A stretch of 64,000 bases of DNA from an uncultured delta proteobacterium (GTDB lineage: Bacteria; Desulfobacterota; Desulfomonilia; UBA1062). The position numbers and the translations under genes are program-made. The DNA lies in contig CAWAUM010000013.1 in NCBI GenBank assembly GCA_963785235.1, positions 32,001 to 96,000 on the forward strand. Direction: 5' to 3'. The first letter of the stretch is position 1, and every line of letters starts with the position of its first letter. The notes beneath the pieces are model-generated. The model searched no databases. It saw only the letters and a program-made list of their open reading frames with translations, and was not told the DNA's origin. Shown here piece by piece: positions 6,942 through 29,488 of this stretch.

Positions 6942-7334
6942 ATGCCCAAAGAGGGATATTATAAGAAAATGTTTTTTATTGGTGCTATCTGGAACTGGGT
7001 TGCAACGTTAACATTTGCAATAGGTTGGAAATTTTTATTTCCCTTGTTCGGGATGGCATTTCCAAACTATCTGGTGTTCTACATGTTGTTCCTTGGATTG
7101 TGTTTTGTCTTCGGAATTGGCTACTTCTGGGTTTCCCGTGATATATCCAGCAACCATGGCATTGTACGCATGGGGATTATCGGCAAATTGCTGGTCTTTG
7201 CCGGGTTTCTTATTGCCTGGGTAATGGGGGAAGTGCCCCTAATCATAGTGGGCTCTGGGGTTGTAGACCTAATTTTTGCCATACTGTTCATCGAGTTTCT
7301 CAAGTCATATGGAAAGATGGAGGTGCATGGATAA
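6942..7334 (+). CDS. Small ~4-TM membrane protein, paralogue of 8883..9293
   Basis: Hydrophobic segments, FGIGYFWVSRD motif, GGAGG RBS. Confidence 0.8.
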   Translation: MPKEGYYKKMFFIGAIWNWVATLTFAIGWKFLFPLFGMAFPNYLVFYMLFLGLCFVFGIGYFWVSRDISSNHGIVRMGIIGKLLVFAGFLIAWVMGEVPLIIVGSGVVDLIFAILFIEFLKSYGKMEVHG

Positions 7335-7536: not shown

Positions 7537-8436
7537 TCAGGAAACCATATTTCCAATAATGTCTTTGACAGGTTTGATCTCCTTTATCAGGGCACTAACT
7601 TGTCCAGCACCAGCGGGATAAAGGTCAAAATCACCTGTAGACCATGCCTTACCGGCGTTCATCATGTTGTATTCCTGTGTGAGGTCCGCACCTGCGGCCA
7701 TGAGTTTAGCCAACTTAGGATTGATAATGGTTCGCATAGCCATGCCGCCCATGGGTAACAAGGTAGTGCTTGCATCGACACAGGCTACGATAGCCTCTTT
7801 CCATGACCTGGATGCCGGACTCTCTTCGGAAGCTAATAAGGCAGTTCCTATCTGCACACCTTGAGCGCCTAGCGCCAGGGCAGCCCGGTACCCCCGACGG
7901 TCTGCGATTCCACCGGCGGCTACAACAGGCACATCGACCATGTCACAAACCAAGGGAATCAGGATCATATTGGTGGACTCAGGTCCTGTTGTGCGGAGAC
8001 CGCCTGATTCTGCTCCAGAAACAACGATCCCGTTCGCACCTGCCTCAGTGGCCTTGGCGGCTAGAGGAGCCGCAAGGATCACATGGAGGACCTTCATGCC
8101 CAGCTCTTTGATTTTTGGATATATTTTTTTAGGGGACCCTGCCGAGGTAGTCACAGTCTTAATACCAGCTTCAGCTAATACCTCGAGTATGGCATCATTG
8201 TTGGGATTCATTGCAATCATGAGATTGGCCCCAAAAGGTTTGTCGGTAAGTTCCCTGATTTCGGCAATCATCTTTCTGACCTTGCTTACATCTGAGACAA
8301 AGCCCAGAGCCAGCATACCGAATGCGCCAGCCTCGGAGACGGCTGCCACCATCTTCGGGTTGTTCAATTCACCGATGGGGCCTTGAATAATAGGATATTT
8401 ACAACCCAGGATATCTAATAGTGTGGTTTTTTCCAT
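7537..8436 (-). CDS. Nitronate monooxygenase/FabK-like FMN oxidoreductase
   Basis: YPIIQG, KPFGANL, VVAAGGIAD, GAQGVQIGT and AGQVSALI motifs. Confidence 0.9.
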   Translation of the reverse strand: MEKTTLLDILGCKYPIIQGPIGELNNPKMVAAVSEAGAFGMLALGFVSDVSKVRKMIAEIRELTDKPFGANLMIAMNPNNDAILEVLAEAGIKTVTTSAGSPKKIYPKIKELGMKVLHVILAAPLAAKATEAGANGIVVSGAESGGLRTTGPESTNMILIPLVCDMVDVPVVAAGGIADRRGYRAALALGAQGVQIGTALLASEESPASRSWKEAIVACVDASTTLLPMGGMAMRTIINPKLAKLMAAGADLTQEYNMMNAGKAWSTGDFDLYPAGAGQVSALIKEIKPVKDIIGNMVS

Positions 8437-8882: not shown

Positions 8883-9293
8883 TTATACAATGCGTCTGTT
8901 CTCTTCCTGTTTCTCTCCACGCAGCGCAGAAAGGAAAAGAATTGTCCATATGAAATCTCCCAATCCTCCTAGAAAAGCAAAGGTTGTTATCTGTCTACGG
9001 AAATAAAGGCGGGCAAAAGTGAGAAAGATGATCACTTTGGCCAGGCATCCCATCCAGATGATGCCCTGGTTCTTGTCCGGATCTCGTGACACGAGGTAGT
9101 AACCCAAGCCAAAGACACCCACTGCCCCCCAGAAGAATGCAAAGAATGTCCGTGGCAGAATCCCCGTAATTATATTCTTGGATCCGGATATCAGCCACAT
9201 GGTGAGGCTGGGCATCACCAGGCCATTGAATGCGAAACCAAAATTCCATAGGGAACCCCAATAATAGATTTGCTTCCGAGTTCCAATCTTCAT
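8883..9293 (-). CDS. Small ~4-TM membrane protein, paralogue of 6942..7334
   Basis: GSLWNF...FGLGYYLVSRDPDKNQGIIWMG motif. Confidence 0.8.
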   Translation of the reverse strand: MKIGTRKQIYYWGSLWNFGFAFNGLVMPSLTMWLISGSKNIITGILPRTFFAFFWGAVGVFGLGYYLVSRDPDKNQGIIWMGCLAKVIIFLTFARLYFRRQITTFAFLGGLGDFIWTILFLSALRGEKQEENRRIV

Positions 9294-9431
9294 GAGATCT
9301 ATCCCCCCTTATAATCTCCCTCAAAGGTGTTTTGAATAATAATTCCATATTATAGGATAATAAAACCAAGTATAAAGTTGTCAATTCATATTGTCTAATG
9401 AAATGATCAGGACAAAGAACATCAGTACGTC

Positions 9432-9587
9432 AAGTATAGATTTCGTGCTAAGGCCAATGGTTATTCAAAGAGCATAGATTTCTTTTATAATCATCGCAAA
9501 AGACGGGCATTGAAAATCATAGATTTCATGCCATACTTGGTGCTCAGAGCATGTAGCGTGAACACCATAGATTAGAAAATATTATCT
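9432..9587 (+). repeat. Dispersed intergenic repeat, copy 2
   Basis: GGCCAATGGTTATTCAAAGAGCATAGATTTCTTTTATAATCATCGCAAAAGACGGGCATTGAAAATCATAGATTTCATGCC...CCATAGATTAGAAAA. Confidence 0.85.
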
Positions 9588-9652
9588 CCGGCCCCTGCTA
9601 TGATCAAGATTCAATGGAGGTATACCCTCTTGAATGAATACCTGAGATCACT

Positions 9653-10471
9653 TCATCCCTCCGGCCCTTTATAGACACGGTTTATCTGAAAATCTATGAT
9701 TGCACGGTTGATCGATGGAAACCACCTACCTGTCATTTCAATGAACCTGGCTATGAATCCGGGTATTATAAGGAAACGATCTTTTTGTATGCCCTTAATT
9801 ACTTCATCTGCCACTACGTCAAGAGAGAGAACAGGGACAGTTTGCGTAACGACACGATTCTCTGTTGTACGATAGGTATTCAAATCATCCACCATGGGTG
9901 ATTCAAACTCACCAGGACATACAAGGTGGAACTTGATATTCAGGGGCTTGAGCTCCGCACGAAGGACATCGGTCAATCCGACGATAGCAAACTTGGAAGA
10001 ACAGTAAGCGGCATATCCAAACGTTCCGATCTTGCCTCCTAGGGAAGAGATATTTACTATTCTGCCCTGACCTTTCTTCCTGAAGATGGGTATTATAGCC
10101 TTGGTACAGTTCAGCACGCCGAAATAATTGATATCCATGACTTCCCGGAAGATCGATATAGGGAGCCTTTCAAAGTAACCTTCTCTGAGGATACCTGCGC
10201 TATTGATAAGGATATCCGGCAAGCCAAAAGTATCTGTAATGGTGTTTAGAGTCTTCTCTGTCGCGGTATAATCGGAAACATCACATGGGAATATCTCAAT
10301 TCTCTGACCGGCTATGCATATTGCGGATAACTCATCCTTGACCCTTGCCAGCTTATTCTTGTCCCTTGCGATGAGTGCAAGGTTAGCCCCACTCTTTACG
10401 AGTCGTTGAGCAAGGGCTCTTCCCAGTCCACTTGAGCCACCTGTAATGACAATAATCGAGTCCTTGAACAT
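9653..10471 (-). CDS. SDR oxidoreductase (KDSR-like subgroup)
   Basis: TGGSSGLG, NSAG, catalytic YCSSK, GTFGYAAY. Confidence 0.85.
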   Translation of the reverse strand: MFKDSIIVITGGSSGLGRALAQRLVKSGANLALIARDKNKLARVKDELSAICIAGQRIEIFPCDVSDYTATEKTLNTITDTFGLPDILINSAGILREGYFERLPISIFREVMDINYFGVLNCTKAIIPIFRKKGQGRIVNISSLGGKIGTFGYAAYCSSKFAIVGLTDVLRAELKPLNIKFHLVCPGEFESPMVDDLNTYRTTENRVVTQTVPVLSLDVVADEVIKGIQKDRFLIIPGFIARFIEMTGRWFPSINRAIIDFQINRVYKGPEG

Positions 10472-10549
10472 AAAGGTCTCCCCTCTTGTGCTAAAGTTGT
10501 CATGAACCTATTTAAGATATGTTTTGCAACCCTTCCCATTTATTAAGAG

Positions 10550-11524
10550 TTATATCTTGCTACTGCTTCCGGCAACGGCAGGTACACCATAGGACTTCAT
10601 TACCTCAACGAGAGATAAGATATTTTCCTCCCATACCTTCCGTTCAGTAGTCTGGACCCCAACCATCCCATAACCCAACCCAAGAGATTCATATTTTTCA
10701 ACACCCAATTGACGGTATGGAAGAAGCTGAACTTGAGTTACCCGGTTGTCCAGTTTGTCCCTGATGAATCCAGCTGTTGCTTCGATATTCTCCCTACTGT
10801 CATTGTGACCCGGAACTATGGGTATACGGATAATAAGCGGCTTGCCCTTCTTGGCGATGCTCAGGATATTTTTCAGAATACATACATTGTCCACACCGGT
10901 GTACTCCTTGTGTTTCCCGGGATCCATATGCTTGATATCGGTAATTATGAGATCTGCATAGGGAGCCACCTTAGCCAAAATGCCTGGATGAATAGCAAGT
11001 TCTGTTTCCATACACGTATGAATACCGTGTCTTTTACATTCTTTGAGTATCGCCCGGGTAAATTTCCATTGTATCAGCGGATCGCCTCCCGACAGGGTAA
11101 CCCCTCCACCGGAGTTTTCATAGAACTCGATGTCCGACATCACTACGTCAATGATATCATCAACGGAATATGTTTTTCCCCAGACCATGAGGGCATTCGC
11201 CGGGCAGACATCTGTGCATTTCAGGCAATCTGTACAGATATCCCGGTTGATCCCGGAAATTTTTCCTTCCTGTATCGAAAAGATCTGTTCATTTCCAAGA
11301 GGACAAGAGGAAAGACATTGGCCACATACTTCGATGCCGATGCAACGTGAAGCATACACACCTACTTGTGGATAGGCCTTCAAACTCTCCGGATTGCTGC
11401 ACCATTTGCAATGGAGTGGACATCCTTTGAGAAATATCTCTGTTCTGATACCAGGACCATCGTGGATGGTAAATCTTTGGATGTTAAAAACATAACCCTT
11501 GATGCGATTCTTGCTGGTCCCCAT
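10550..11524 (-). CDS. Glycyl-radical enzyme activating enzyme (radical SAM with ferredoxin insert)
   Basis: HDGPGIRT, CPLHCKWC, two auxiliary Cys clusters, GGVTLSGG. Confidence 0.95.
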   Translation of the reverse strand: MGTSKNRIKGYVFNIQRFTIHDGPGIRTEIFLKGCPLHCKWCSNPESLKAYPQVGVYASRCIGIEVCGQCLSSCPLGNEQIFSIQEGKISGINRDICTDCLKCTDVCPANALMVWGKTYSVDDIIDVVMSDIEFYENSGGGVTLSGGDPLIQWKFTRAILKECKRHGIHTCMETELAIHPGILAKVAPYADLIITDIKHMDPGKHKEYTGVDNVCILKNILSIAKKGKPLIIRIPIVPGHNDSRENIEATAGFIRDKLDNRVTQVQLLPYRQLGVEKYESLGLGYGMVGVQTTERKVWEENILSLVEVMKSYGVPAVAGSSSKI

Positions 11525-11627
11525 CCTGTTAACCTCTCTTGCAAACTGGTCCTATAAGTGATCCTGACATTCACTTGAGGCTGCTGCAGTTTGTTCAACC
11601 ACAGCCTCAAGTGATATGTCTGCGGAT

Positions 11628-14179
11628 TTATTCAAAGGAGAGTTCAGTCCTCCCCATAATGTCATACTGCAGCGGTTTGCTCAGTTCTACAAAGTAAGCA
11701 CTGTAGCCTGCTACTCTTACCAGCAAGTGTTTATATTGATCAGGATTTGCTAGTGCGCATTCCATGGTTTCCCTGCTTATTATATTGAACTGGCTGTGCA
11801 TCCCTTTTCTGTTGAAATAGACATCGAGAAGTGAAATCAGGTTGTCACGGCCTGATTCCCCAGCCACGCAGGTGGGGGTGAACTTCCAGTTGAGCAAGGT
11901 CCCATTTCCTGCTCGTATATGATCAAGCTTAGTGACTGATTTCGCCATAGCGCTTGGCCCTTTGATGTCATGTGATCCGGCCCATGTATGGACAGGCCCA
12001 AGACAATCGGAAACTGGCTCAAGCGCCTTTCTACCGTCGGGAGAAGCCCACTGTACAAGACCCATTGCGACATTGCATGAGACCGAATACACCCCGGGAA
12101 CATACTTACCGCCACGGGCATTGGGCCTGTCTTCGACGTGTTTGCAATAGGTATCGTATCCGAATTTTGCAAGTTCATCTGCATAGTCGTCATCGTTACC
12201 GTAGTGGTGCACTTTATCGCTGTTCACAAGAGCATACAGAGCCTCATGCCCGACCCAGTTGTCCTCGATGGCTTTGAGCAGCTTATCAGCTGTGATTTTC
12301 TTCTCCTCAAATACAAGTTGCTTGATGGTAGCAAAACCATCTGCTACGGTTCCAACCCCTACAGCCTGGGGACCGGTAAAATTGTAATGGGCTCCACCGG
12401 CTGACACATCTATGCCCTTCTCCGTACAATCATCAATGAGTGTAGACAAGTATGGGAGGGGCTTGAGGCGCTGGTGAACACGATCCATGATCTCTATGCC
12501 TTCAACCATCAGATCGACCCAGTATTTCATCTGCTTGTCATACGCATCAAGCACCTGGTCGAAGGATGTAAAATCAGTCAGGCTTCCTGTTGAAGGACCA
12601 ATCTTCTTCCCGATGCCGCCACAGACATCCCATCTGGGGCAATGCTGTCCGCACCCGATGCAACGGCCGTCGTTGATGGCCAGCTCCAAAATCTTTGATG
12701 TGCTGAAATAGGCTGCGTCATGCCAGCCGTACTCCTTCCCCCCAGCATCAATTTCCACGCACCCGACCACATGGTAATTCCGGGAGTCTTCCAGTGTTCT
12801 CCCAGAACGAAGAGATGCAGGTATAGCAGCCTGATCGTTAAACACCTTGGGCTGGCCGGTACCGATGCGAATAACGTTTGCTGTCTTGATTTTCAGCTCC
12901 CGGGGTGTTTTTTCATGCCACCTGACAGCAAACCATGGGACTCCAAGCCGGGTATGAGCATGTGCATCGAGTAACATGAATGTCAGATCATTTGTGGCAT
13001 CGTTTCCCTCTGAGTCAACACCACCGACCGTCAATGTATCTCCGCCCATACCTCTACCCGAGTTCGGTATCACTGTCAGACGGTCTCTAAGCTTGGTCCA
13101 CCAGATATGCTTGATGAAGTAGATCTCAAGGAGTTCCTGGATCGTCTCTTTTGTGGCATATCCACTTTCTATGTCTTTTTGATAAAAGGGGTATAAGTAT
13201 TGATCAATTCTTCCTATGGAGACTGAGTGGCCATTAGACTCGATCAGTACAATCGTGGTAGCAATGAACATGAGTTGGAGCGCCTCCCAGATAGAACGTG
13301 GAGGACTTTCCGACACCCAGTCACAGTTCGAGGCTACCTGCTCCAGGTCTTTTCTGCGTAGAATGTTTTTCTCTTTCCGTGCCATCTCCCTGGCAAGAGA
13401 CGCATATCGTCTCAGATAATTGGATGCTGCTTCAAGGGAGATCAACTCGGCCTGGTAGAATTCCTTCTTCCTGAGATCCTCGTTATGTGACCCTGCCAAC
13501 GCACCCATCTTCTCAATCACTTGCTTCTTGATGCCGCCGAAGCCAAGGGCGAAAAGTTTTTCGAAATTCGGCTGTAGATGGCCTATACCACCATACATGT
13601 AGAGGTTCAGAAGATAAATCCCCCGCCCCACGTGTGTTCCTTTTTCTGGTCCTCAGACATTTCGGCGAGGATAGCCTCCTCAATTGTTTTCCCCTTCCAG
13701 AACTCTTCTATCTCTTTGAGCTTCTTTGTCGACTTCTTCTGCGTATAATATTTATCATGCAAACGCTTGTTCAGAGGATGATTCTTTATCTCGTCCATGA
13801 CCCACGCATAGGAATGTTCAGGGAAAATCGGGGCGGATTTAATGGGTGCTGCCATCTCACCCACAATGAGCTCATCCTCTGTGATGCTAATGTTTACATT
13901 TTTGAGCACATGAGCTAGAGCCAAAGCGCACTTCATTATTTGGGGCTCGTCCACATACTTCCTGTATGCCTCGGTCACAAGGCACGCTCTCTGGTCGTCC
14001 ACTGTAAATTCCTGCGCATGGACATATGATAGGAAACGGTTGACCCTGGGAAAGGGAGAGGGGTTCTCGTCCATTCCAGACAGGGCGATGGGCCACTCCT
14101 TGTCATAAGGGATCAAGCCTATTGGTTTTGATTTTACAGTACCGGCTTTCTCCGGGGTCTGTACTTTTTCTGTGATCAT
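11628..14179 (-). CDS. Glycyl radical enzyme, diol-dehydratase-like eliminase (frameshift at ~13640)
   Basis: ORFs 13607..14179 and 11628..13631 join at an A-run. Motifs GGIGH, ESNGHS, GCVE, GWHDAAYF and the LVRVAGYS glycyl loop. Confidence 0.9.
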
Positions 14180-14283
14180 GGTATGCCTCCTGTATTCTGA
14201 TTGTCTGATTTATCTGTGAGATTGTCCTGATACGTACAATTCAGCTGGATTAAGTCTCTGCCTACTCGATTTCAGCATAATGT

Positions 14284-14646
14284 TCACTGTGCCATCATTT
14301 TCGACAGGGCTGCGGAAAACCACATAAATTCCTTGAAATTGCCCTCGATGATTAGCTTCTTCTCAGTGAGCGCAGCCAGTGAAGCCTCATCATTTTTACA
14401 GGTCATCACCTTGAAACCTGTGTCAGCATCACACCAGACCATGGCTACATCGCTTTTCTCACGATTTCCAGGACTTGAAGAGATGCTTCCTTTGTTGAAC
14501 ACATAGACACGCCCTTGGTCGCTCTTCGTGGTTTTAATTGCGACCTTGAGTTTCTTGTTCTGGATGTACTCCCTGAAAGCCTTGTTCTTCTTCGCAGCCC
14601 ATTTCAACTTACCGTACAGTATAAGGAGTAAAAGCTTGAATTTCAT
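14284..14646 (-). CDS. SCP2-like (sterol-carrier fold) small protein
   Basis: MKFKLLL start after RBS; DVAMVWCDADTG...KKLIIEGN...MWF pattern resembling SCP2-like domains. Confidence 0.6.
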   Translation of the reverse strand: MKFKLLLLILYGKLKWAAKKNKAFREYIQNKKLKVAIKTTKSDQGRVYVFNKGSISSSPGNREKSDVAMVWCDADTGFKVMTCKNDEASLAALTEKKLIIEGNFKEFMWFSAALSKMMAQ

Positions 14647-14685
14647 AAGACACCCCCTTTTTTTCTTGAAACGTATAAGAATCAT

Positions 14686-14701
14686 TACAATATGCATACC
14701 A
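14686..14701 (-). promoter_or_regulatory. Putative sigma54 promoter of the GRE operon
   Basis: TGGTATGCATATTGTA (GG-N10-GT variant), 40 bp upstream of the first operon gene and next to a sigma54 activator gene. Confidence 0.5.
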
Positions 14702-14841
14702 GGTGTTCTGGACGTAGGTGGTAACTGTTTATTATCTTGATATACCTAACATTATTACGTTTAGATGGGTTGAATCTTATTTTTTGAAAAAAGAATAAAC
14801 AACCATATTTGGTGGTTCTACTAAATATAGTTAAAAATGAT

Positions 14842-16452
14842 CTATGTATCCGATGATGACCTTCGCTGAATAGATATTCCAAGCTTCCGCATACGGCCTC
14901 TCAGTGTGTTCGGGTGTAATCCGAGAAGGGTTGCAGCTCCCTTTGCGCCATCGATTCTCCAATCTGTTTTTTCGAGAATCTTGAGGATATGGCGTCTTTC
15001 AATTTCAGAGAGATTCGTGATGGACGGTTCTTCATTAGAGCATGACCCTGGATCTTCGAGCTTTTCACTAAGATGGAGGGTATTACCACTGGTGATGATA
15101 ATGGCACGCTCGATTACATGCTCCAGTTCCCTCACATTACCTGGCCACGTGTAAGATCTCAGTCCCGTCATCGTCTGCTTAGGAATGCTATTGATCTCTT
15201 TGCGCATCTTCCTGGCGAATTTCATTACAAAATGCTCGACCAGGAGAGGAATATCCTCTTTCCGCTCTCTCAAGGAAGGAATGGTGATGGGAAAAACATT
15301 CAGGCGATAGTAAAGGTCTTGGCGGAAGCGCCCTTTCGATGCCTCTTCTTTGAGATTCCTGCTCGTAAGGGCAATGATACGTACATCAACCTTAATGGTT
15401 TTAGGACTGCCAAGTCGTTCGAACTCTCCATCCTGTATAGCTCTTAGGAGCTTAGCCTGCAACTCCAGGGGAAGCTCTGCAATCTCATCAAGAATTATCG
15501 TACCTTTATCAGCAAGCTCGAAACGTCCAATTTGTCTGCTGGAAGAGCCTGTGAATGCACCTTTTTCCCTTCCAAACAACTCGCTTTCAATTAAATTGGG
15601 AGGAAGGGCTGCACAGTTCACGATCACCAATGGGTGATTCTTCCTGGGGCTAAGGTCGTGAATCGCACTAGCGATCATTCCTTTTCCTGTTCCCGTTTCA
15701 CCAAGCACGAGTACTACTGAATCAGTGGGAGCTACCTGCTCCATCCGGAAAAAAACATGTCTAATCGTAATACTCTGCCCGACGATATTATGATATGCGC
15801 GCTCATTTTCAGTCTCTTGGCGTAGGTTTATCTTCTCTATATGGCCCTGTTTGCTGAAGCTCTGCATCTCTTGTAGGGCTGATTCATACTTTTCTTCCAT
15901 TTTCTTGCGGTGCAATGCACTGGTGATTATCTCTCCGGCGAGCTTTAGCCTGGGAATGAGCTCAGCCGGGAAATGTCTTTCCTGTCTCATACATGCAAAG
16001 GACAGCCCGCAGATGGGCTTGCCAGCAACCCTATATGGAATGACAATAACTGATTTCTCACCTATTGCCCGGGAAGACTCTTTGTCCACCGATGCTTCTT
16101 CTGGTAATTCTTCATGTCGGCTGAAGCATACAGTCTCATCATTTAATGCCTTCTTAAAAAGCCATGGGAAGTGTTCGGTGGTGATACTGGGAGGAAAGTT
16201 CTTGAACCCAGGGACAGTGTATTGGTGTGTCCACCGTGCCTCAGTCTGGTTTTCCGACAACTCCCAAAAGGTGCAGCGGTCTAAATCGAGACATTTAGCA
16301 ATTCGCTTCAATCCCCATTCAATCTCCTCATCGACCTCACTGGCAGGGGTGTTGGCGAACTGGGTTGAAATCTCTGATAGTAATTTATCGAGTTCGAGAG
16401 ACTGCTTCGGGCTTATGCCCATTAATGAAGATGTCGAAGCTTTATTCTTCAT
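14842..16452 (-). CDS. Sigma54-dependent activator (GAF + AAA+ + Fis HTH)
   Basis: GETGTGK, ESELFG, GAFTGS, WPGNVREL and a C-terminal HTH. Confidence 0.95.
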   Translation of the reverse strand: MKNKASTSSLMGISPKQSLELDKLLSEISTQFANTPASEVDEEIEWGLKRIAKCLDLDRCTFWELSENQTEARWTHQYTVPGFKNFPPSITTEHFPWLFKKALNDETVCFSRHEELPEEASVDKESSRAIGEKSVIVIPYRVAGKPICGLSFACMRQERHFPAELIPRLKLAGEIITSALHRKKMEEKYESALQEMQSFSKQGHIEKINLRQETENERAYHNIVGQSITIRHVFFRMEQVAPTDSVVLVLGETGTGKGMIASAIHDLSPRKNHPLVIVNCAALPPNLIESELFGREKGAFTGSSSRQIGRFELADKGTIILDEIAELPLELQAKLLRAIQDGEFERLGSPKTIKVDVRIIALTSRNLKEEASKGRFRQDLYYRLNVFPITIPSLRERKEDIPLLVEHFVMKFARKMRKEINSIPKQTMTGLRSYTWPGNVRELEHVIERAIIITSGNTLHLSEKLEDPGSCSNEEPSITNLSEIERRHILKILEKTDWRIDGAKGAATLLGLHPNTLRGRMRKLGISIQRRSSSDT

Positions 16453-16830
16453 ATTGGGGCCTTGAGAACATGCTCCATGATATGTAGAGTACTTTCTTCA
16501 CTTCTTTGTTATATCACTCTTATGCCTGATATAGAACATTTGTAAGATAAAACCACTAGAACATTTCAATGCAGGCTTCAAGAAAACAAGTTCACATGTC
16601 TTAATAATACATCTAACAGACTAATATTAAACATGTTATATTTCCCCTATATCTGTATAGATAAAGCTATTGTGATTAGATTGTGCAAAGATAAAAAGAT
16701 TACATCAGGAGATCTCACTTCAACAGGCTAACTCATGTATGAAATTATTCAGGGGCATCTGATTCAATCCAAAGTATAGATTTCTGCAAAAATGATCGGT
16801 TTCACAAGACCTGAAAAACTAAGGATTGAA

Positions 16831-19068: not shown

Positions 19069-20619
19069 TCACACCATCTTCGGCCAGGAGGCCAGCAGAC
19101 GTCTGCTCATGCCCCGCTCGCCGTTGCTGCCGCGGGCAAGGGCAAGGGCCTTTATCAGCTCGGTCCTGGTGTCACGCGGGTCAATGACCTTGTCGATGAG
19201 GTTCAGACCGGCTGCCTCCCAGGGCTCGGCCTTGCGGATCATCTCCTTCATGAATGCGGTTTTCATCTCGTCGGCCCCGGGTGCGTCAGAGAAGTTCTGG
19301 CCAAAGGCGGCATTGATGGCCACATCTGCGGCCATGAATGAGATATCTGCAGTGGGCCAGGCGATAATGGAATCCGAGAGCTTCCCGCCCGCCATGTTGT
19401 GATGGGCCATGCCGTAGGACTTGCGGGTTATGAGGCTCACCACAGGCACAGTGGTGAGCTGGAGCGCCTTGATCATGGACATGATCTTCAAGGGCATCTT
19501 CCGCTCTTCTGCTTCCCTGCCCACGAGGAAACCCGGCGTGTCGTGGATGAAGATCATGGGGATGTTGAACGAATCGCACAGGCAGATGAAGGCGATGGCC
19601 TTGTCGCAGGCCCCCGGGCCCATGGCGCCCGCAGTCACCAGAGGGTTGTTGGCGAGCACGCCTACACTGTATCCGTCAAGGCGCGCCAGGCACGTGACCA
19701 GGCTGCCGTCGTAATAGGGCTTGAGCTCCAGGATGCTGTCACAATCGAAGATGAGGTTCAGTGCGTTGTGGATGTCATAGAGGGTCTTGGGGTCTTCCGG
19801 GACCGCCTCGAAGATGGATTCGATCCTTGCCCCTGAAGGATCGTCGCATGGCTTTATGGGCGGAAGCTCGTGGGCATTGCACGGCAGATAACCCAGCAGG
19901 CGGCGTATCAGCCAGAGGCACTCCTCTTCGTTCTCGGCGAACAGGTCCACCTGGCCGGTCACACGGGCATGGACCTCCCAGCCGCCGAGCTCCTCGGCTG
20001 TCGAGTTCTCGCCCGTGGCCACCTCGATGATGCGGGGCGATGTGACCGCCATGATGGCGCCCTTCACCTGTATGACCACATCCGAGATGGAGGCCTCCCA
20101 GGTGGGGCCGCCATAGCATTCGCCCATGATGGACACGATGAACGGCACCTCGCGGTTGTGGGCATCCACGATCTCCATGGCCTTCATGATGCCTGTGGCC
20201 CCCATGGTGTCGGGGATGCGCGCCCCGCCGCCGTCGCCGAGATGGACGCAGGGGAAGCCTTTGGTTGCGGCGTAGTGCAGGTTTTTAATCGCCTTGATGA
20301 CCCCTATGCGCCCGCCTGCCCCGGACATGACCGTTACATCGTCGCCTGAAACGTATACGGTGCGGTTGTCTATCAGGCCGAATCCGCACACCTTCCCGTC
20401 AGCCGGAGTCTTTGCGGCGGCCTCGGGAAGATCACTGTGGCAGAGCACGCCATACTCGTCAAAGGACCCCTTATCCAGGAGCAGGTCGATCCGCTCGCGG
20501 ACTGTAAGCCTTCCCTTGTCGTGCTGCTTCCTTACCTTCTTTTCGCCTCCCATGGCCTTGTTCTTTTCCATGCGGGAGGCAAGCTCGGCTATTTTATATG
20601 GATCGACTGGTTGGCTCAT
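19069..20619 (-). CDS. Acyl-CoA carboxylase, carboxyltransferase subunit
   Basis: GRLTVRERIDLLLD, GGARI, DTPGFLVG, IDPRDTR. Confidence 0.9.
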   Translation of the reverse strand: MSQPVDPYKIAELASRMEKNKAMGGEKKVRKQHDKGRLTVRERIDLLLDKGSFDEYGVLCHSDLPEAAAKTPADGKVCGFGLIDNRTVYVSGDDVTVMSGAGGRIGVIKAIKNLHYAATKGFPCVHLGDGGGARIPDTMGATGIMKAMEIVDAHNREVPFIVSIMGECYGGPTWEASISDVVIQVKGAIMAVTSPRIIEVATGENSTAEELGGWEVHARVTGQVDLFAENEEECLWLIRRLLGYLPCNAHELPPIKPCDDPSGARIESIFEAVPEDPKTLYDIHNALNLIFDCDSILELKPYYDGSLVTCLARLDGYSVGVLANNPLVTAGAMGPGACDKAIAFICLCDSFNIPMIFIHDTPGFLVGREAEERKMPLKIMSMIKALQLTTVPVVSLITRKSYGMAHHNMAGGKLSDSIIAWPTADISFMAADVAINAAFGQNFSDAPGADEMKTAFMKEMIRKAEPWEAAGLNLIDKVIDPRDTRTELIKALALARGSNGERGMSRRLLASWPKMV

Positions 20620-22584
20620 GGGTTGTTCTCCGTATCAATTGCTATGAGTATGGACCCCATCTTCACAAAATCACCCTGCTTCACGAAGATCTCCTTCACC
20701 ACGCCTTGCTCTACAGCAGTAATGATGTTTTCCATCTTCATGGACTCGATGATGATAAGGTCCTGGCCTTTGTTCACTCTCTGGCCCTGTTGCACCGATA
20801 CCAGTGCCACCTTGCCGTCCATGGGCGCCTCGCAGGCCCCCTTTTTATGGTGCTGGAACTCCATTGAATGGAACCGCGACAGATAGGTGAGCTGATGGTG
20901 CCCGAGGCTCAAGGAATGGAGGAACACCGTCTCCTTGTCAAGGGCATAGGAGAACTTGAGCTGCCTGCCATTGATGATGAGGGACATGGAATCAGAGTCC
21001 TTCCCGGCGACAAAGACGTCGTAGGTGTCTTTGTGGATGATAATTGTAAAGCTGTCTCCATCCTTTTTTCTGAAGTTGGCGCAATACTGAATTCCATGCA
21101 TCAGAAAACCTGCAAATTTCAAGGTGTGGTAGCCTGCCTGCCACCCCAGTTCCCGATGGCCTTCCTCGTGGTCGTTGAACCGGGCCACAATGGCGGCCAC
21201 GACGAGCACCCTCGCCTCTTCCTCCCTCAAGGCAGGTCTTTCCATGACAGGGGAGTCCTTGTCGAAAATAGTCGGTCTTGATCTGGCCCTTATGAAATGC
21301 CTCGCCCGTCACAAGGCGCGACAGGAAATCGATGTTGGTCGCCACGCCCAGTGCAGCGGTCTCATGAAGGGCCCGGTTCATCTTCCTGATGGCGTTTGCC
21401 CGGGAATCGGCGTGTGCGATCACCTTTGCCAGGAGGGGGTCGAAATCAATGGTTATCCGCGATGAGGTGGCCACACCACTGTCGGTCCGGGCACTTTTGG
21501 CAGCCTTCCACAGAATCAGATTCCCTGCAGAAGGGACAAAGTTATTATCCGGGTCTTCGGCATAGACCCTGCATTCCATGGCATGGCCGTTTATGGAGAG
21601 ATCCGCCTGGCTCACAGGCAGCGGCTCGCCTTCGGCAATGGCTATCTGCATCTCCACCAGGTCGAGGCCGGTTACGGCCTCGGTCACCGGGTGCTCCACC
21701 TGAAGCCTGGTGTTCATCTCCAGGAAGAAAAACTTTCCGTCATCGTCCAGCACGAACTCCACGGTGCCTGCGTTCGTATAGTTCACGGCTTTTGCTATGG
21801 CGATTGCCGCCTTTCCCATCTTCTTTCTCAAGGGCTCCGTCATGGCAGGAGACGGGGATTCCTCTATGAGCTTCTGATGCCTGCGCTGGACCGAGCACTC
21901 CCGCTCAGGGCAGTGGATGATCTTGCCGTGCAGGTCACCCAGGACCTGGAATTCGATATGCCGTACAGGGCTCAGGTATTTCTCAATGAGCAGGCTGTCA
22001 ATGCCGTACACGGCCAGGGACTTCTTTCGTGCAGCACGCAGCGAACCTTCCAGGAGCGAAGGGGCATCCACCCTGAAGATGCCGATGCCGCCACCGCCTG
22101 CCGAGGCCTTGATGAGGAGCGGATATCCTATGCTTAAAGCCCTTGCGGTGAGTTCCTCCATGGATTCCCCGCCCACCCTGAATCCCGGGATAACGGGAAC
22201 GCCTATCTTCTCGCAGAGTTCACGGGCTGCGATCTTGGAGCCCATAATCCTGATGGATTCCGGCGTTGGTCCGATAAACGTTATGCCCTCTGCGCAGCAG
22301 CGTGAAGCGAATTCAGGATTCTCCGAGAGGAGCCCGTAACCCGGATGGATTGCATCCGCACCGGCATCATGTGCCGCCTGGATGATCCTGTCCTGGTCAA
22401 GGTAGGCCCCGATCCCTGCCTCGCCCAGACAGATCGCCTCGTCCGCCATGTTCATGAACACGCTGCCCCGGTCAATCTGTGAATACACGGCAACGGTTGC
22501 AATCCCCAGTTTCCGGCAAGTCTTTATCACCCTGCAGGCTATTTCTCCGCGATTTGCGATCAACAGGCACTTTATCTTTTTCAT
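20616..22584 (-). CDS. Acyl-CoA carboxylase, biotin carboxylase + biotin carrier subunit (frameshift ~21265)
   Basis: IANRGEIA, HPGYG, RECSVQRRHQK and EMNTRLQVEH in one frame; ESMKME biotinylation motif in the next. Confidence 0.9.
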
Positions 22585-26517: not shown

Positions 26518-27726
26518 ATGAAGTATATCCATGCTTTTAATAACTTGGTGGAGAAGAAAAAGATCTATCCTGATTTCCCCGTTATTGACGGCGGGGCAAG
26601 CCCTGAAGTTGTTGTGAATGGAAAAAGGTTATTGATGTTCTCTTCCAATAATTACCTGGGTCTTACATCCCATCCCAGAATAAGGAGCGGCCCATGAGGC
26701 TATTGAAAAATACGGGACAGGTTCGGGGGGTTCCCGCCTCCTATCCGGAAACCTCAAAATCCATGAAGAGGCAGAACGAAAAATTGCCGCCTTTAAGGGC
26801 GGAGAGGCTGCCATTATCTTCCCCACGGGTTATTCAGCGAATGTCGGTGCCATCTCAGGGTTCCTCGACCTGCTGAAGATTTCTCCCCGTTATTTCTTCA
26901 TGAGAAGATGCATGGTTTTTTCCGACGACTTGAATCATGCAAGCATTATTGACGGGTGCAGATTGAGCGGGGCAAAGACCGTGGTGTATCCTCACAAGGA
27001 TATGGATGTTCTGGAAGCAAAGCTGAAACGCCATCGCGCCGGCGCAAGCTTATCATAACCGACGGTGTCTTCAGCATGGATGGTGATATCGCCCCCCTTG
27101 ATCAGATAGCATACCTGGCGAAAAAATATGATGCGGTCACCATGGTGGATGAAGCCCATGCCACAGGCATTCTCGGGACTCATGGACACGGTACTATTGA
27201 GCATTTCCACCCGAAGCCCTTGAAGGACATTGCCATCATAATGGGGACTTTCAGCAAATCCGTCGGAGCCGTGGGCGGGTATGTCGTAGGATCACATGAC
27301 CTGATACATTATCTCAGGGTAGCTTCCCGGTCGTATATGTTCTCGGCAGCCATGCCCCCGGCCACTGCTGCAACCATTATTGCCGCAATCGATCTCATGG
27401 AAAGCGACCCGACCTTAAGGACGAAGTTATGGGAGAATACCAACCATTTGAAGGAAGGGTTTAACGATCTGGGATTCAATACCTTTTCCAGCGAGACCCA
27501 GATCATCCCCATACTGATCGGCAAAGACGATAAAGGGGTGGAATTCTCCCGGCGCCTGGTTGACTACGGGATATACGGGCCATGCGTCAGATGGCCTGCG
27601 GTAACAAGAAACCAGTCCAGGATCAGATTTACCGTAATGGCCTCCCACACCAGGGAGCAGATCGATTATCTTCTTGATTGCTGCAGGTCTTTAGGGAGTA
27701 AGATGAACGTGTCTATGGGGAAATGA
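26518..27726 (+). CDS. Alpha-oxoamine synthase, serine palmitoyltransferase-like (frameshifts ~26685 and ~27038)
   Basis: SNNYLGL, GSGGSRLLSG, NHASIIDG, DGVFSMDGD, DEAH and PLP-Lys motif GTFSKS. Confidence 0.8.
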
Positions 27727-28550
27727 AAATGAAGGATTTTCTTGATAAAAACGTCTATATTACCGGCGGATCTACCGGTATCGGTCTTTCCACTGCCAAG
27801 CTCCTGGCGGCAGCGGGGGCCAACGTCATCATCTCCGCCCGGACAAAAGAAAAACTTGAAACAGCCATGGAAGAGATCGAGAGCCGCCGCATCTTACAGG
27901 CGCAGCGTTTCGCCTTCCGTCAACTCGACGTGGCGGACAATACAGAAGTGAACATTGTCATGACTGAGGCTGTTCAAAACTTCGGCATCCCGGACCTCCT
28001 CATTAATAATGCCGGGCGGGCCCTGCCACGCTGTTTCGAGGAAGTCACCTTCGCGCAGTTCGACGAGACCATGAAGACCAACCTCTACGGCAGCTGGAAT
28101 ACCACCACGGTCCTCATCCCGTACATGAAGCCCGGGGGCGGAGCAATCGTCAATGTGTCCTCCCTGTGCGGCTTCATGGGGGTCTTCGGCTATACGGACT
28201 ATTGTGCCTCGAAATTCGGCATCATCGGCCTCTCGGAGGCGCTCAGGCAGGAACTGCGGCGCTACGATATCACGGTTTCCGTACTCTGCCCTCCCGATAC
28301 CGACACACCGGGATACGCCACAGAAAACATCTGTAAACCTGAGGTGACCAGGGCGCTTTCGGCCGCAGCCAAGATCATGCAGCCGGATGAAGTTGCCAGG
28401 GAGCTTGATCGAGGGATCAAACGCAAGACCTTCATCATTATCCCCGGTGTGGACGGAAAATTCATCTATTTCATGAAGCGGCACTTCCCCTTCATCGTGG
28501 AGCTGATTATGCGTCGGGGTATCTGCAAGGTACAGAAGGGGAGCGTATAG
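27723..28550 (+). CDS. 3-ketodihydrosphingosine reductase-like SDR
   Basis: TGGSTGIG, GVFGYTDYCASK and PPDTDTPGYATENICKP (KDSR-type signature); overlaps the upstream stop codon. Confidence 0.8.
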   Translation: MKMKDFLDKNVYITGGSTGIGLSTAKLLAAAGANVIISARTKEKLETAMEEIESRRILQAQRFAFRQLDVADNTEVNIVMTEAVQNFGIPDLLINNAGRALPRCFEEVTFAQFDETMKTNLYGSWNTTTVLIPYMKPGGGAIVNVSSLCGFMGVFGYTDYCASKFGIIGLSEALRQELRRYDITVSVLCPPDTDTPGYATENICKPEVTRALSAAAKIMQPDEVARELDRGIKRKTFIIIPGVDGKFIYFMKRHFPFIVELIMRRGICKVQKGSV

Positions 28551-28561
28551 CCAGTTCAACA

Positions 28562-29488
28562 ATGAAGGCATGTAATCCTGAAAAGTTACTGAGTCTTGAA
28601 GAAGGTCTCACCATCGGCATGGCCGTGCTGTGCAATCTCATCATCCTTCTTTTCATGCACCTGGGGCAGGCACAAGACATCTTTGTGCTGAACATGCTCA
28701 TCACGGCGGTCATCCTCCTGGTAGCTTGTGTCCACCGGCGTTTTCCCCACACATGGCTGCAGTTTTTCCGGGACTGGTATGTGGTTTCTTTTCTGATCAT
28801 CATCTATCTGGAGAATCGCACACTCATCCCTCTCATCAACCCCCATGAACTGGACAGCCTCGTCATGGCCGTGGACCGGTTTCTTTTTGGCGGGCACGAC
28901 CCCACAGTCCTCATGGAAAGAATAATGTACCCTGCCCTTTCGGAAATACTGCAGATATCCTATGCGAGCTTCTATTTTCTTCCGCTCTCACTGTGTGTGA
29001 TCCTCTATTCCCTCAGGGAGGCCAGGGATGACTTTCATGTTGTGGCATCCACCATATTCATGGGATTCTATCTCTCCTACATCGGGTATTACTTCACCCC
29101 GGTCCTCGGGCCGAGATTCACCATGGAACACCTGCAAAGCGTTCCCCTGAGAGGATTGTGGACCTTTGACTTTCTCAGAAACCTACTGGCACAGACTGAA
29201 GGAAGGATGTACGACTGCATGCCGAGCGGACACGCCCTCGTCTCTGTTCTCACCGTGCTTCTGTCCTGGCGATACGCCAAGAGATTTTTTCCTGTTGCCC
29301 TTGCCTGGACAGTTCTCCTGAGCTTCTCAACGGTGTACCTGCGCTATCACTATGTGAGCGACCTCATTGCAGGCATGGCGCTGGGTGTGCTGGTGTTCCA
29401 GTTCGGCCCCGGCCTCGCGGAGGCAACCATGCGCGGCACAGAGAAAGAACAGGGGATACCTGAATCGATGCAGCTCAGGAAGGAGTAA
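28562..29488 (+). CDS. PAP2-superfamily membrane protein, Aur1/IPC-synthase-like
   Basis: PVLGPR, CMPSGH and YLRYHYVSD motifs; multiple TMs. Confidence 0.75.
   Translation: MKACNPEKLLSLEEGLTIGMAVLCNLIILLFMHLGQAQDIFVLNMLITAVILLVACVHRRFPHTWLQFFRDWYVVSFLIIIYLENRTLIPLINPHELDSLVMAVDRFLFGGHDPTVLMERIMYPALSEILQISYASFYFLPLSLCVILYSLREARDDFHVVASTIFMGFYLSYIGYYFTPVLGPRFTMEHLQSVPLRGLWTFDFLRNLLAQTEGRMYDCMPSGHALVSVLTVLLSWRYAKRFFPVALAWTVLLSFSTVYLRYHYVSDLIAGMALGVLVFQFGPGLAEATMRGTEKEQGIPESMQLRKE

Follow-up and report, generated by a model that had tools for sequence, protein, structure and literature searches.

To our knowledge, all characterized glycyl radical enzyme (GRE) eliminases act on small soluble molecules. 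In one of them, glycerol dehydratase, Glu435 serves as the base and His164 as the acid, according to the part of the 2026 GRE review available to us (PMC13450708), which also describes the known small subunits of GREs, found in the X-succinate synthases (benzylsuccinate synthase, BSS, and methylalkylsuccinate synthase, MASS) and in 4-hydroxyphenylacetate decarboxylase (HPAD), as high-potential iron-sulfur protein (HiPIP)-like [4Fe-4S] or rubredoxin-like proteins, and states that no structure exists of HpfG, the dehydratase of 2,3-dihydroxypropanesulfonate (DHPS). The HpfD enzyme of the same pathway was identified in Hungatella hathewayi, as given in the accessible part of a second paper (PMC12890257). 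Here we analyzed a stretch of 64,000 nucleotides from an uncultured delta proteobacterium (hereafter the window), which carries on its minus strand, between positions 9653 and 16452, the genes for an oxygen-sensitive GRE, its activating enzyme (activase), a small protein with the sterol carrier protein 2 (SCP2) fold, a sigma-54-dependent activator and a short-chain dehydrogenase/reductase (SDR). We give about an even chance to the reading that this GRE represents a distinct, HpfG-related subfamily of 1,2-eliminases with an SCP2 accessory subunit, and that its substrate is an amphiphilic, probably anionic, diol.

The linkage between the GRE and SCP2 genes was surveyed in 78 related loci from species-representative genomes. 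The SCP2 gene was located directly upstream of the GRE gene in 28 of the 28 loci with upstream DNA and a GRE of at least 72% identity (a 29th locus of this group, L006, begins at a contig edge and was left out), and in none of the 49 loci whose GRE is 69% identical or less. The activase gene followed the GRE gene in 27 of the 28 SCP2-positive loci, and a gene for a TetR-family regulator preceded the module in 23. An SDR gene was found within 7 kb in 2 of the 28 loci, with 26-36% identity and never directly after the activase gene, and a homologue of the sigma-54 activator lay near the module in a single one (L008; 41% identity, opposite orientation). An earlier note on this DNA had described a row of five co-oriented genes, which was found as such, and had proposed the SCP2 linkage, which is strictly conserved; its view of the SDR as a linked partner and of the sigma-54 activator as a member of the operon did not hold beyond this genome. 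The clade bears the labels Thermodesulfobacteriota, Bacillota (Syntrophomonadaceae), Spirochaetota, Elusimicrobiota and Actinomycetota, the hosts of the module include Smithellaceae, Desulfobacteraceae, Syntrophomonadaceae and Spirochaetota, and the module evidently moves as a unit. Within the order of the source organism (52 genomes), four genomes hold a GRE that scores above 1300 bits on the clade alignment, and three of them have the SCP2 gene next to it; the fourth, G006, which belongs to the same family, shows the arrangement TetR-GRE-activase without an SCP2 gene (L089, 4235-7806) and a pocket loop that reads NSGRHVGGS, and no SCP2 remnant was found in its 384-nt spacer between the TetR and GRE genes. 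In one Syntrophaceae locus (L047, 10474-14062) the activase gene is followed by a second SCP2-like gene (30% identical) and by genes for an iron-containing alcohol dehydrogenase (Fe-ADH) and a tungsten-type aldehyde:ferredoxin oxidoreductase, a gene row that fits an aldehyde product.

The assignment of the small protein came from structure prediction and from its family, since no Pfam or NCBIfam model matched the protein of the window itself. One of the 23 family members matched PF02036 (SCP2) with an E value of 9.5e-4, and three of them weakly matched Alkyl_sulf_C. The AlphaFold model built on a 23-row alignment (predicted local distance difference test score, pLDDT, 92.1; predicted template modelling score, pTM, 0.85) showed the alpha/beta layout of SCP2, and Foldseek aligned it with SCP2, UbiJ-SCP2, MFE-2 SCP2-like and alkylsulfatase C-terminal domains (42 matches with E of 0.001 or lower, probability 1.00, TM scores of 0.55-0.67). 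The nearest cluster in the ESM Atlas was annotated as 'putative SCP2 domain-containing protein' (score 0.96). These models confirmed a predicted SCP2 fold, and we propose that the protein may act as an accessory subunit or as a substrate carrier of the GRE. Among the 23 aligned small proteins no Cys residue is invariant, and a conserved Cys motif was not found.

A complex of the two proteins was predicted with the intact pair of the relative L001, whose GRE and small protein are 86% and 78% identical, respectively, to those of the window. The prediction reached an interface score (ipSAE) of 0.76 (0.78, 0.75 and 0.76 in the individual runs), and the best of three controls reached 0.00; the mark used for ipSAE was reached by 116 of 157 solved complexes and by 2 of 215 mismatched pairs, a calibration that is only rough here because custom alignments were used. 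The runs agreed in at least 93% of the contacts, with a pLDDT of at least 87 for the partner. This modelling, which had been suggested as a check on the locus, supports binding of the SCP2 protein to the GRE. On the GRE side the predicted interface comprised residues 134-141, 364, 506-510 (within a four-Cys insert described below), 636-640, 705, 716-717 and 831-836 (L001 numbering); residues 364 and 705 lie immediately beside the pocket loop (370-378) and the strand of Y695, the equivalent of Tyr640 of glycerol dehydratase, and the small protein would dock at the end of the barrel where the pocket strands emerge. The interface residues L140, L717 and Y836 are hydrophobic only in the SCP2-positive clade. 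One fusion of the small protein with a GRE N terminus was found in the database (P0121, 364 aa, on a 4.9-kb contig); it was the single match of a fusion search among longer proteins, in which few matches amount to weak evidence.

The GRE of the window shows both domains of the superfamily (PF02901 and PF01228), the glycyl radical motif RVAGYS and the GCVE Cys loop, with one interruption of the frame. Its closest solved structures were the GRE-type propanediol and glycerol dehydratases 5i2a (514.7 bits), 1r8w (511.3 bits) and 9rco (506 bits), the last of which is a GRM3 propanediol dehydratase. Hydrocarbon activation by an alkylsuccinate synthase-like enzyme was also considered, the hosts of the module including Smithella, and was rejected; the GRE has the His/Glu set of the eliminases, and MasD and BSS scored 241 and 195 bits versus about 511-515 bits for the glycerol and propanediol dehydratases. 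The best NCBIfam model was NF048009, which describes HpfG and has a curated cut-off of 1000 bits. Each of the two pieces into which the window gene is split remained under this cut-off (943.8 and 152 bits), intact relatives scored 1106-1141 bits, and the proteins of H. hathewayi (L068) and of a member of the Fusobacteriaceae scored 1720 and 1714 bits. H. hathewayi L068 was the stand-in for true HpfG, as the HpfG proteins of Klebsiella oxytoca and Enterococcus gilvus were not among the sequences; the proteins scored on the model include L001, L012, L016, L025, L033, L035, L036, L043, L068, L070 and L071. L025 is the intact homologue of a cultured strain, Desulfosarcina widdelii PP31. Nine of the proteins scanned have quite different pocket loops (FGNGGIGGP, SSGTIMGGT and others), and five of these passed the model with 1017-1085 bits and one more with 1008.8 bits, the others scoring 973-987. 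Because subfamilies with different pocket loops pass it, the NF048009 cut-off sweeps in a superclade rather than an orthologous group, and on this comparison it does not appear to define function. The name (2S)-3-sulfopropanediol dehydratase, which some of the relatives carry in the database, is probably over-assigned in environmental genomes, since several subfamilies with different loops pass the model and true HpfG scores about 1715-1720 bits.

In pairwise comparison, the C-terminal piece of the window GRE was 55% identical to the H. hathewayi enzyme, and the full-length relative L001 was 51% identical to it. A maximum likelihood tree (quick search, 83 rows, rooted on three paralogues of the same genome) placed the window GRE in a clade of 29 rows and the true HpfG enzymes, including that of H. 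hathewayi, in another of 7 rows, each with a support of 100 in the Shimodaira-Hasegawa-like approximate likelihood ratio test (SH-aLRT); a trio from Syntrophomonadaceae was the sister group of the window clade, and two large gut-type subfamilies stood between the window clade and HpfG. Twenty-six positions are conserved in the SCP2-linked clade and different in all five SCP2-less relatives aligned, and several of them, namely M195, Q203, W357/W358, D378, A448, N465, H467 and G477, lie beside active-site motifs. As judged from these alignments, the GRE is not an orphan, its nearest characterized relative being HpfG, and the SCP2-linked enzymes form a distinct, strongly supported clade that is not simply HpfG. 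The earlier note had set its proposal against the case that the GRE clusters with a characterized small-substrate enzyme; relationship to such an enzyme, HpfG, was found, but the window GRE lies outside the clade of characterized HpfG. The surroundings of the genes also differ, since a cluster with an HpfD-type Fe-ADH was present in one of the 28 SCP2-positive loci (L047) versus ten of the more distant loci, and neither an HpfE exporter nor a sulfonate transporter was conserved across the 28.

The C-terminal piece of the GRE contains the motifs GGIGH, ESNGHS, GCVEI, GWHDAAYF, PGVYS and RVAGYS, the NSGRGMGGD loop and a four-Cys insert. The equivalents of H164, H281/S282, C433, E435, D447 and Y640 of glycerol dehydratase are kept in the window enzyme, as aligned to 1r8w by HMMER, and in 82 relatives (for H281/S282, C433, D447 and Y640, with the roles and numbers that we take to apply). 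The same alignment to 1r8w has NSGRGMGG in place of FGGYPMY (the Tyr339 region), with a one-residue insertion. All of the motifs that had been quoted for this enzyme were found, and the kept catalytic set and the replaced loop agree with its description as an uncharacterized dehydratase/eliminase-type GRE whose pocket loop has been remodelled. In contrast, the loop and GCVEI had been overrated as distinguishing features: the loop reads N-S-G-R-G-M-G-G-D in the window clade versus R-N-G-R-G-F-G-G-E in true HpfG, and GCVEI is not special because it is also found, and often, in true HpfG. The core G-R-G-x-G-G was invariant in a 30-row alignment that included two true HpfG proteins, and was replaced in the sister subfamilies. 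We suggest that the Arg of this loop may serve a negatively charged substituent, which in DHPS would be the sulfonate; being conserved and shared with HpfG, it makes an anionic group on the substrate more likely than a purely hydrophobic diol. The four-Cys insert, C-x2-C-x3-C-x5-C (CIGCGQHCPRWDVC; residues 324-337 of the C-terminal piece, 12621-12662 on the minus strand of the window), is kept across nearly the whole HpfG-like superclade, true HpfG included, and is absent from the glycerol and propanediol dehydratases; it is a possible metal site.

By analogy with glycerol dehydratase and HpfG, the activase would generate a radical on the Gly of RVAGYS with the help of S-adenosylmethionine (SAM), from which Gly it would move to the Cys of GCVE, and this Cys would abstract a hydrogen from C1 of a vicinal diol. 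The Glu of GCVE would then deprotonate the C1 hydroxyl and the His of GGIGH would protonate the leaving C2 hydroxyl, so that water would depart and an aldehyde would be formed. The N-S-G-R-G-M-G-G-D segment replaces the loop that contacts C3 of glycerol, as does the related loop of HpfG, where the C3 substituent is a sulfonate, and the substrate may be a 2,3-dihydroxypropyl-type, or similar, compound with an anionic group. The SCP2 protein, docked on the end of the GRE barrel, would hold or hand over the hydrophobic part of the substrate. That substrate might then not be free DHPS but an amphiphile, for instance a long-chain hydroxy-sulfonate or the anionic head group of a lipid. A TetR repressor would normally control expression, with the sigma-54 activator in its place in this genome, and the adjacent SDR, which stands outside the conserved module, may here reduce the aldehyde product.

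In the assembly the GRE is not encoded by a single open reading frame (ORF) but by two ORFs in different frames, the first of which terminates at a premature TGA. The seven homologues printed all read through the frameshift site (QKKGTHVGRG or a near variant; QKKGT[HN].GRG.YLLNLY), and contigs of two public metagenome runs, about 98% (X1) and about 95% (X2) identical to the window over the pieces aligned, each have one extra letter behind position 13640; two other runs (X3 and X4) yielded near-identical pieces whose coverage leaves the site outside. The genome is a 13-contig assembly, 93% complete, in which three further GRE paralogues (one of them in at least five pieces), a fatty-acid cis/trans isomerase and release factor 3 (prfC) are split as well, and probably also the biotin carboxylase/biotin carboxyl carrier protein (BCCP) of the window; these places lie in the window (20616-22584), in L088 (8180-10517), in L087 (12102-13750) and on contigs C1, C7 and C9. 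The many adjacent or overlapping split ORFs therefore indicate an indel-rich assembly. A homopolymer origin was seen for the window GRE alone and is possible for the biotin carboxylase; no homopolymer run of five or more was found at the junctions of the split cis/trans isomerase, prfC and the contig-7 GRE. Given that the frame is continuous in related contigs and homologues and that split genes are common elsewhere in the genome, we consider it quite probable that the split is an assembly indel. The other explanation, that the gene is a recently inactivated pseudogene in the source organism and the operon non-functional, seems to us rather improbable. In its favor, one base is missing and a premature TGA results in the assembly, several other GRE paralogues of the genome are likewise fragmented, no run from the same strain covers the site, and the contigs with the extra base come from relatives that are 95-98% identical rather than from this strain. 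Nevertheless, both pieces are otherwise intact, with no further stops and 86% identity to full-length relatives, the break sits in a homopolymer, and the splitting extends to genes of a housekeeping type such as prfC, as is typical where an assembly is rich in indels. The pseudogene question is separate from that of what the module does. The coordinates of the site and of the genes are given in Table 1.

Table 1. Genes of the GRE row in the window and the site at which the GRE frame is interrupted
Feature	Length (aa)	Position	Strand	Family matches and remarks
Sigma-54-dependent transcriptional activator	536	14842-16452	minus	PF00158 (224.3 bits), PF25601, PF02954
SCP2-fold small protein	120	14284-14646 (ORF extendable to 14697)	minus	conserved start
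GRE, N-terminal piece	190	13607-14179	minus	PF02901 positions 17-140 (83.6 bits); NF048009 positions 2-168 (152 bits)
Frameshift site		13641-13645	minus	A5 run, cagAAAAAgg on the coding strand; frames 0 and 2 join; relatives carry one base more
GRE, C-terminal piece	667	11628-13631	minus	PF02901 (549.9 bits), PF01228 (95.6 bits), NF048009 (943.8 bits)
GRE-activating radical SAM enzyme	324	10550-11524	minus	TIGR02494 (343.8 bits; cut-off 174.35)
Classical SDR oxidoreductase	272	9653-10471	minus	PF00106 (186.4 bits)

The C-terminal piece of the GRE covers positions 145-647 of the PF02901 profile and the glycine-radical domain. For the small protein, the start at 14646 is favored by conservation and by a preceding Shine-Dalgarno-like run, GGGGG. 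The activase combines a Radical_SAM domain with Fer4 (ferredoxin-like cluster) domains, its CPLHCKWC segment fits the CxxxCxxC pattern, and its best equivalog was HpfH (NF048008), which it matched with 390.5 bits, under the cut-off of 500. The SDR gene starts 78 nt downstream of the activase gene, and no NCBIfam model scored above its cut-off for the SDR. Domain search of the activator revealed an AAA+ sigma-54 interaction domain, a lid and a Fis-type helix-turn-helix, and a family search with its residues 1-200 gave no match. A scan, allowing up to two mismatches, for TGGCAC-N5-TTGCW, which we take to be the -24/-12 consensus, returned no site in the interval 14646-14842; across the window as a whole it gave 21 matches, with 32 expected by chance. 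A -24/-12-like element with three mismatches was seen by eye at 14701-14686 (TGGTATGCATATTGTA). A scan of 9200-16800 for sigma-70 promoters and terminators showed no minus-strand terminator-like site within the gene row and no informative promoter. As had been pointed out before, microcompartment shell and aldehyde dehydrogenase families are lacking among the neighbors, and none was found in the 30 ORFs scanned (1299-41598).

Elsewhere in the window, genes for a class I/II aminotransferase fragment, an SDR and a PAP2-family protein follow one another on the plus strand (26956-29488), with the look of a sphingolipid-type trio; the aminotransferase fragment aligns only with the C-terminal 60% of its profile, and the SDR is 60% identical to an SDR encoded upstream of the SCP2-GRE module in the relative L010. 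Two ORFs of about 130 aa each (6942-7334, plus strand, and 8883-9293, minus strand), homologous to each other and free of family matches, form an inverted pair that brackets an NMO/FabK-like gene (7537-8436).

The genome of the source organism holds at least eight GRE loci, and SCP2-like domains recur in it. An SCP2 paralogue, 46% identical, is encoded on contig C10 (L087, 9471-9863, minus strand, L087 being positions 219001-234000 of C10) between an OleD/HpnA-like reductase (an extended SDR) and a thiamine diphosphate (ThDP) enzyme that resembles acetolactate synthase and 2-hydroxyacyl-CoA lyase, with no model above its cut-off; a zinc-containing alcohol dehydrogenase, a TetR regulator and a FadD-like ligase are also encoded there. 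Most SCP2-like matches in the order score like this paralogue and do not adjoin an HpfG-like GRE. On contig C7 (L088, 4191-7884) a TetR gene, a split GRE gene with an N-terminal SCP2-like extension, an activase gene and an SDR gene stand in a row, the GRE being 24-36% identical to that of the window, and contig C12 (L084, 922-3900) encodes a 993-aa GRE with an N-terminal SCP2-like extension (PF02036, E 0.011). The lipid-type neighbors of the contig C10 paralogue and the SCP2-like extensions of these two GREs weakly support a lipid-linked role.

Several observations weigh against a module that dehydrates an amphiphilic diol with the help of an SCP2 subunit. True HpfG, which has a small soluble substrate and no SCP2 partner, also possesses the Arg loop and the four-Cys insert. 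The orientation of the Arg towards the pocket, and of the SCP2 cavity towards a substrate channel, is read from sequence position. The flanking genes differ between loci, and none of lipid metabolism recurs with any consistency. The Syntrophomonadaceae sister group (L032 and L033) shows TetR-GRE-activase without SCP2, and because G006, L032 and L033 have no SCP2 gene, the partner is dispensable in close relatives. The predicted interface leaves a similar doubt: positions that discriminate the clade make up 3 of 19 interface positions versus 23 of 523 elsewhere, a marginal difference (Fisher p=0.057), the interface shows no significant excess of conserved residues on the SCP2 side (9 of 20 versus 28 of 100, p=0.11), and the GRE surface at this site is largely conserved in SCP2-less relatives too.

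Because the Arg loop and the four-Cys insert are common to HpfG, the GRE could be an ordinary DHPS dehydratase, that is, an environmental enzyme isofunctional with HpfG, next to which the SCP2-like protein would be incidental or would have a role unrelated to the substrate. This explanation, which we consider rather unlikely, draws on NF048009 being the best model, with full-length relatives above its cut-off of 1000, on the names of some relatives in the database and on the GRG Arg loop and GCVEI that true HpfG has in common with the window enzyme. However, true HpfG reaches 1714-1720 bits and subfamilies with other loops also pass the cut-off, the SCP2-linked enzymes form a separate clade with residues of their own beside the active-site motifs, the HpfD-type Fe-ADH occurs in 1 of 28 loci without a conserved exporter or sulfonate transporter, and the strict SCP2 linkage would be left unexplained. 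In a further explanation the SCP2-fold protein would be a structural or gate-keeping small subunit comparable to BSS-beta or HPAD-gamma, which caps the entrance of the active site or the glycyl radical domain and carries no lipid, the substrate again being small and soluble. The predicted interface takes in the C-terminal stretch that immediately follows the glycyl radical motif (831-836), together with a surface kept throughout the superclade, and would suit such a role, and the small subunits of BSS modulate access according to the accessible part of the review (PMC13450708). We nevertheless regard a pure gate-keeper as unlikely, since the known GRE small subunits are Fe-S or rubredoxin-like proteins and a conserved Cys motif is absent from that of the window, lipid binding is characteristic of SCP2 folds (as stated in the descriptions of the PDB matches), and SCP2 modules recur on two distant GREs of the genome and beside lipid-type enzymes.

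The opposite emphasis was that of the earlier note, in which the SCP2 protein delivers a neutral, bulky hydrophobic diol or amino-alcohol (a dihydroxy fatty acid, a glycerolipid or a sphingoid base) and the SDR acts as an integral enzyme on the carbonyl product. The SCP2 linkage and the predicted docking are compatible with it, an SDR gene follows the activase gene both here and in the SCP2-fused GRE cluster of contig C7, and the sphingolipid-like trio lies 13 kb away. Against it, an SDR was present in 2 of 28 loci without orthology, the Arg that is invariant both here and in the sulfonate enzyme HpfG speaks for an anionic group, and the His/Glu pair is that of the C-O eliminases, so that we hold this version to be very unlikely; its remodelled pocket and its SCP2 partner stood up, and the purely hydrophobic diol did not, the Arg being shared with HpfG. 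The reading preferred here, an HpfG-related eliminase with an SCP2 accessory subunit and an amphiphilic, probably anionic, diol as substrate, can be taken further, to a two-subunit radical dehydratase of lipid head groups in which the SCP2 protein would extract an anionic amphiphile from the membrane or the environment and pass its polar end into the HpfG-like pocket, and the Arg loop would grip the anion while the diol is converted into an aldehyde. Candidates for such a substrate are (lyso)phosphatidylglycerol with its free glycerol head, a hydroxy-sulfonate of the sulfonolipid or capnine type and a surfactant-like dihydroxyalkane sulfonate. In this extended form the proposal is speculative, and we think it doubtful.

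With its strictly conserved partner of the SCP2 fold, the HpfG-related dehydratase would bring a new type of subunit to the GREs, and it gives a hint that anaerobes may carry out radical reactions on amphiphiles or lipids. The chemistry itself is probably ordinary GRE dehydration, and what is new would be the partner and the substrate class that it implies. A literature search for papers that join glycyl radical enzymes with SCP2 or sterol carrier proteins returned no relevant one, a fungal genomics paper being unrelated, and the available part of the 2026 GRE review (PMC13450708) contains no mention of either term. If the head-group dehydratase were real, it would be the first GRE with a lipid substrate and would have the first non-metallo accessory subunit of a GRE, and it would provide an oxygen-free route of attack on lipid head groups in sediments, peat and digesters. 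Whichever substrate is used, naming by NF048009 probably overstates the spread of DHPS dehydration, given that the model takes in, besides this clade, at least two further subfamilies whose pocket loops differ.

The known systems to which the locus can be compared fall on either side of the two proteins. Of HpfG and its activase HpfH, from K. oxytoca and E. gilvus and with a cluster in H. hathewayi, HpfG shares with the window enzyme the catalytic residues, the G-R-G-x-G-G loop, the four-Cys insert and GCVEI; near the pocket HpfG differs by Phe and Glu in the loop versus Met and Asp here, by YNGI versus YNFT and by LNLRF versus LNWKF, and it scores about 1720 bits on its own model versus about 1100 for the window-type clade. 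True HpfG loci have neither the SCP2 partner nor the TetR regulator, whereas the window-type clade is without HpfD and HpfE partners, except for the Fe-ADH of L047. Glycerol dehydratase (1r8w) and the propanediol dehydratases (5i2a and 9rco) have the same His/Ser/Cys/Glu/Asp/Tyr set, and a radical dehydration would be expected in common, but their pocket loop is F-[GA]-G-Y-x-x-[YF] versus the N-S-G-R-G-M-G-G of the window, which is one residue longer, they have no counterpart of its 15-residue Cys-rich insert and, unlike the glycerol and propanediol dehydratase systems compared, the window GRE has no microcompartment context. In the SCP2-fused GREs of this genome the SCP2 part is joined to the N terminus of distantly related enzymes, whereas the SCP2 protein of the window is encoded by a separate gene and belongs with an HpfG-related clade. 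Among small partners of GREs, BSS beta/gamma, HPAD gamma and MASS beta/gamma/delta are likewise small proteins beside a catalytic subunit, and here binding is predicted near the C-terminal glycyl radical region; these known subunits carry four-Cys motifs for metal binding, and the window protein has instead an SCP2 fold, no Cys motif and a partner of the eliminase type. Finally, the C-terminal domain of the alkylsulfatases SdsA1 and Pisa1, UbiJ-SCP2 and the SCP2-like domain of multifunctional enzyme type 2 (MFE-2) have the same fold, which makes an accessory role beside a catalytic unit plausible; they are 11-24% identical to the window protein, which differs from them in being free-standing and in having a radical enzyme as its partner.

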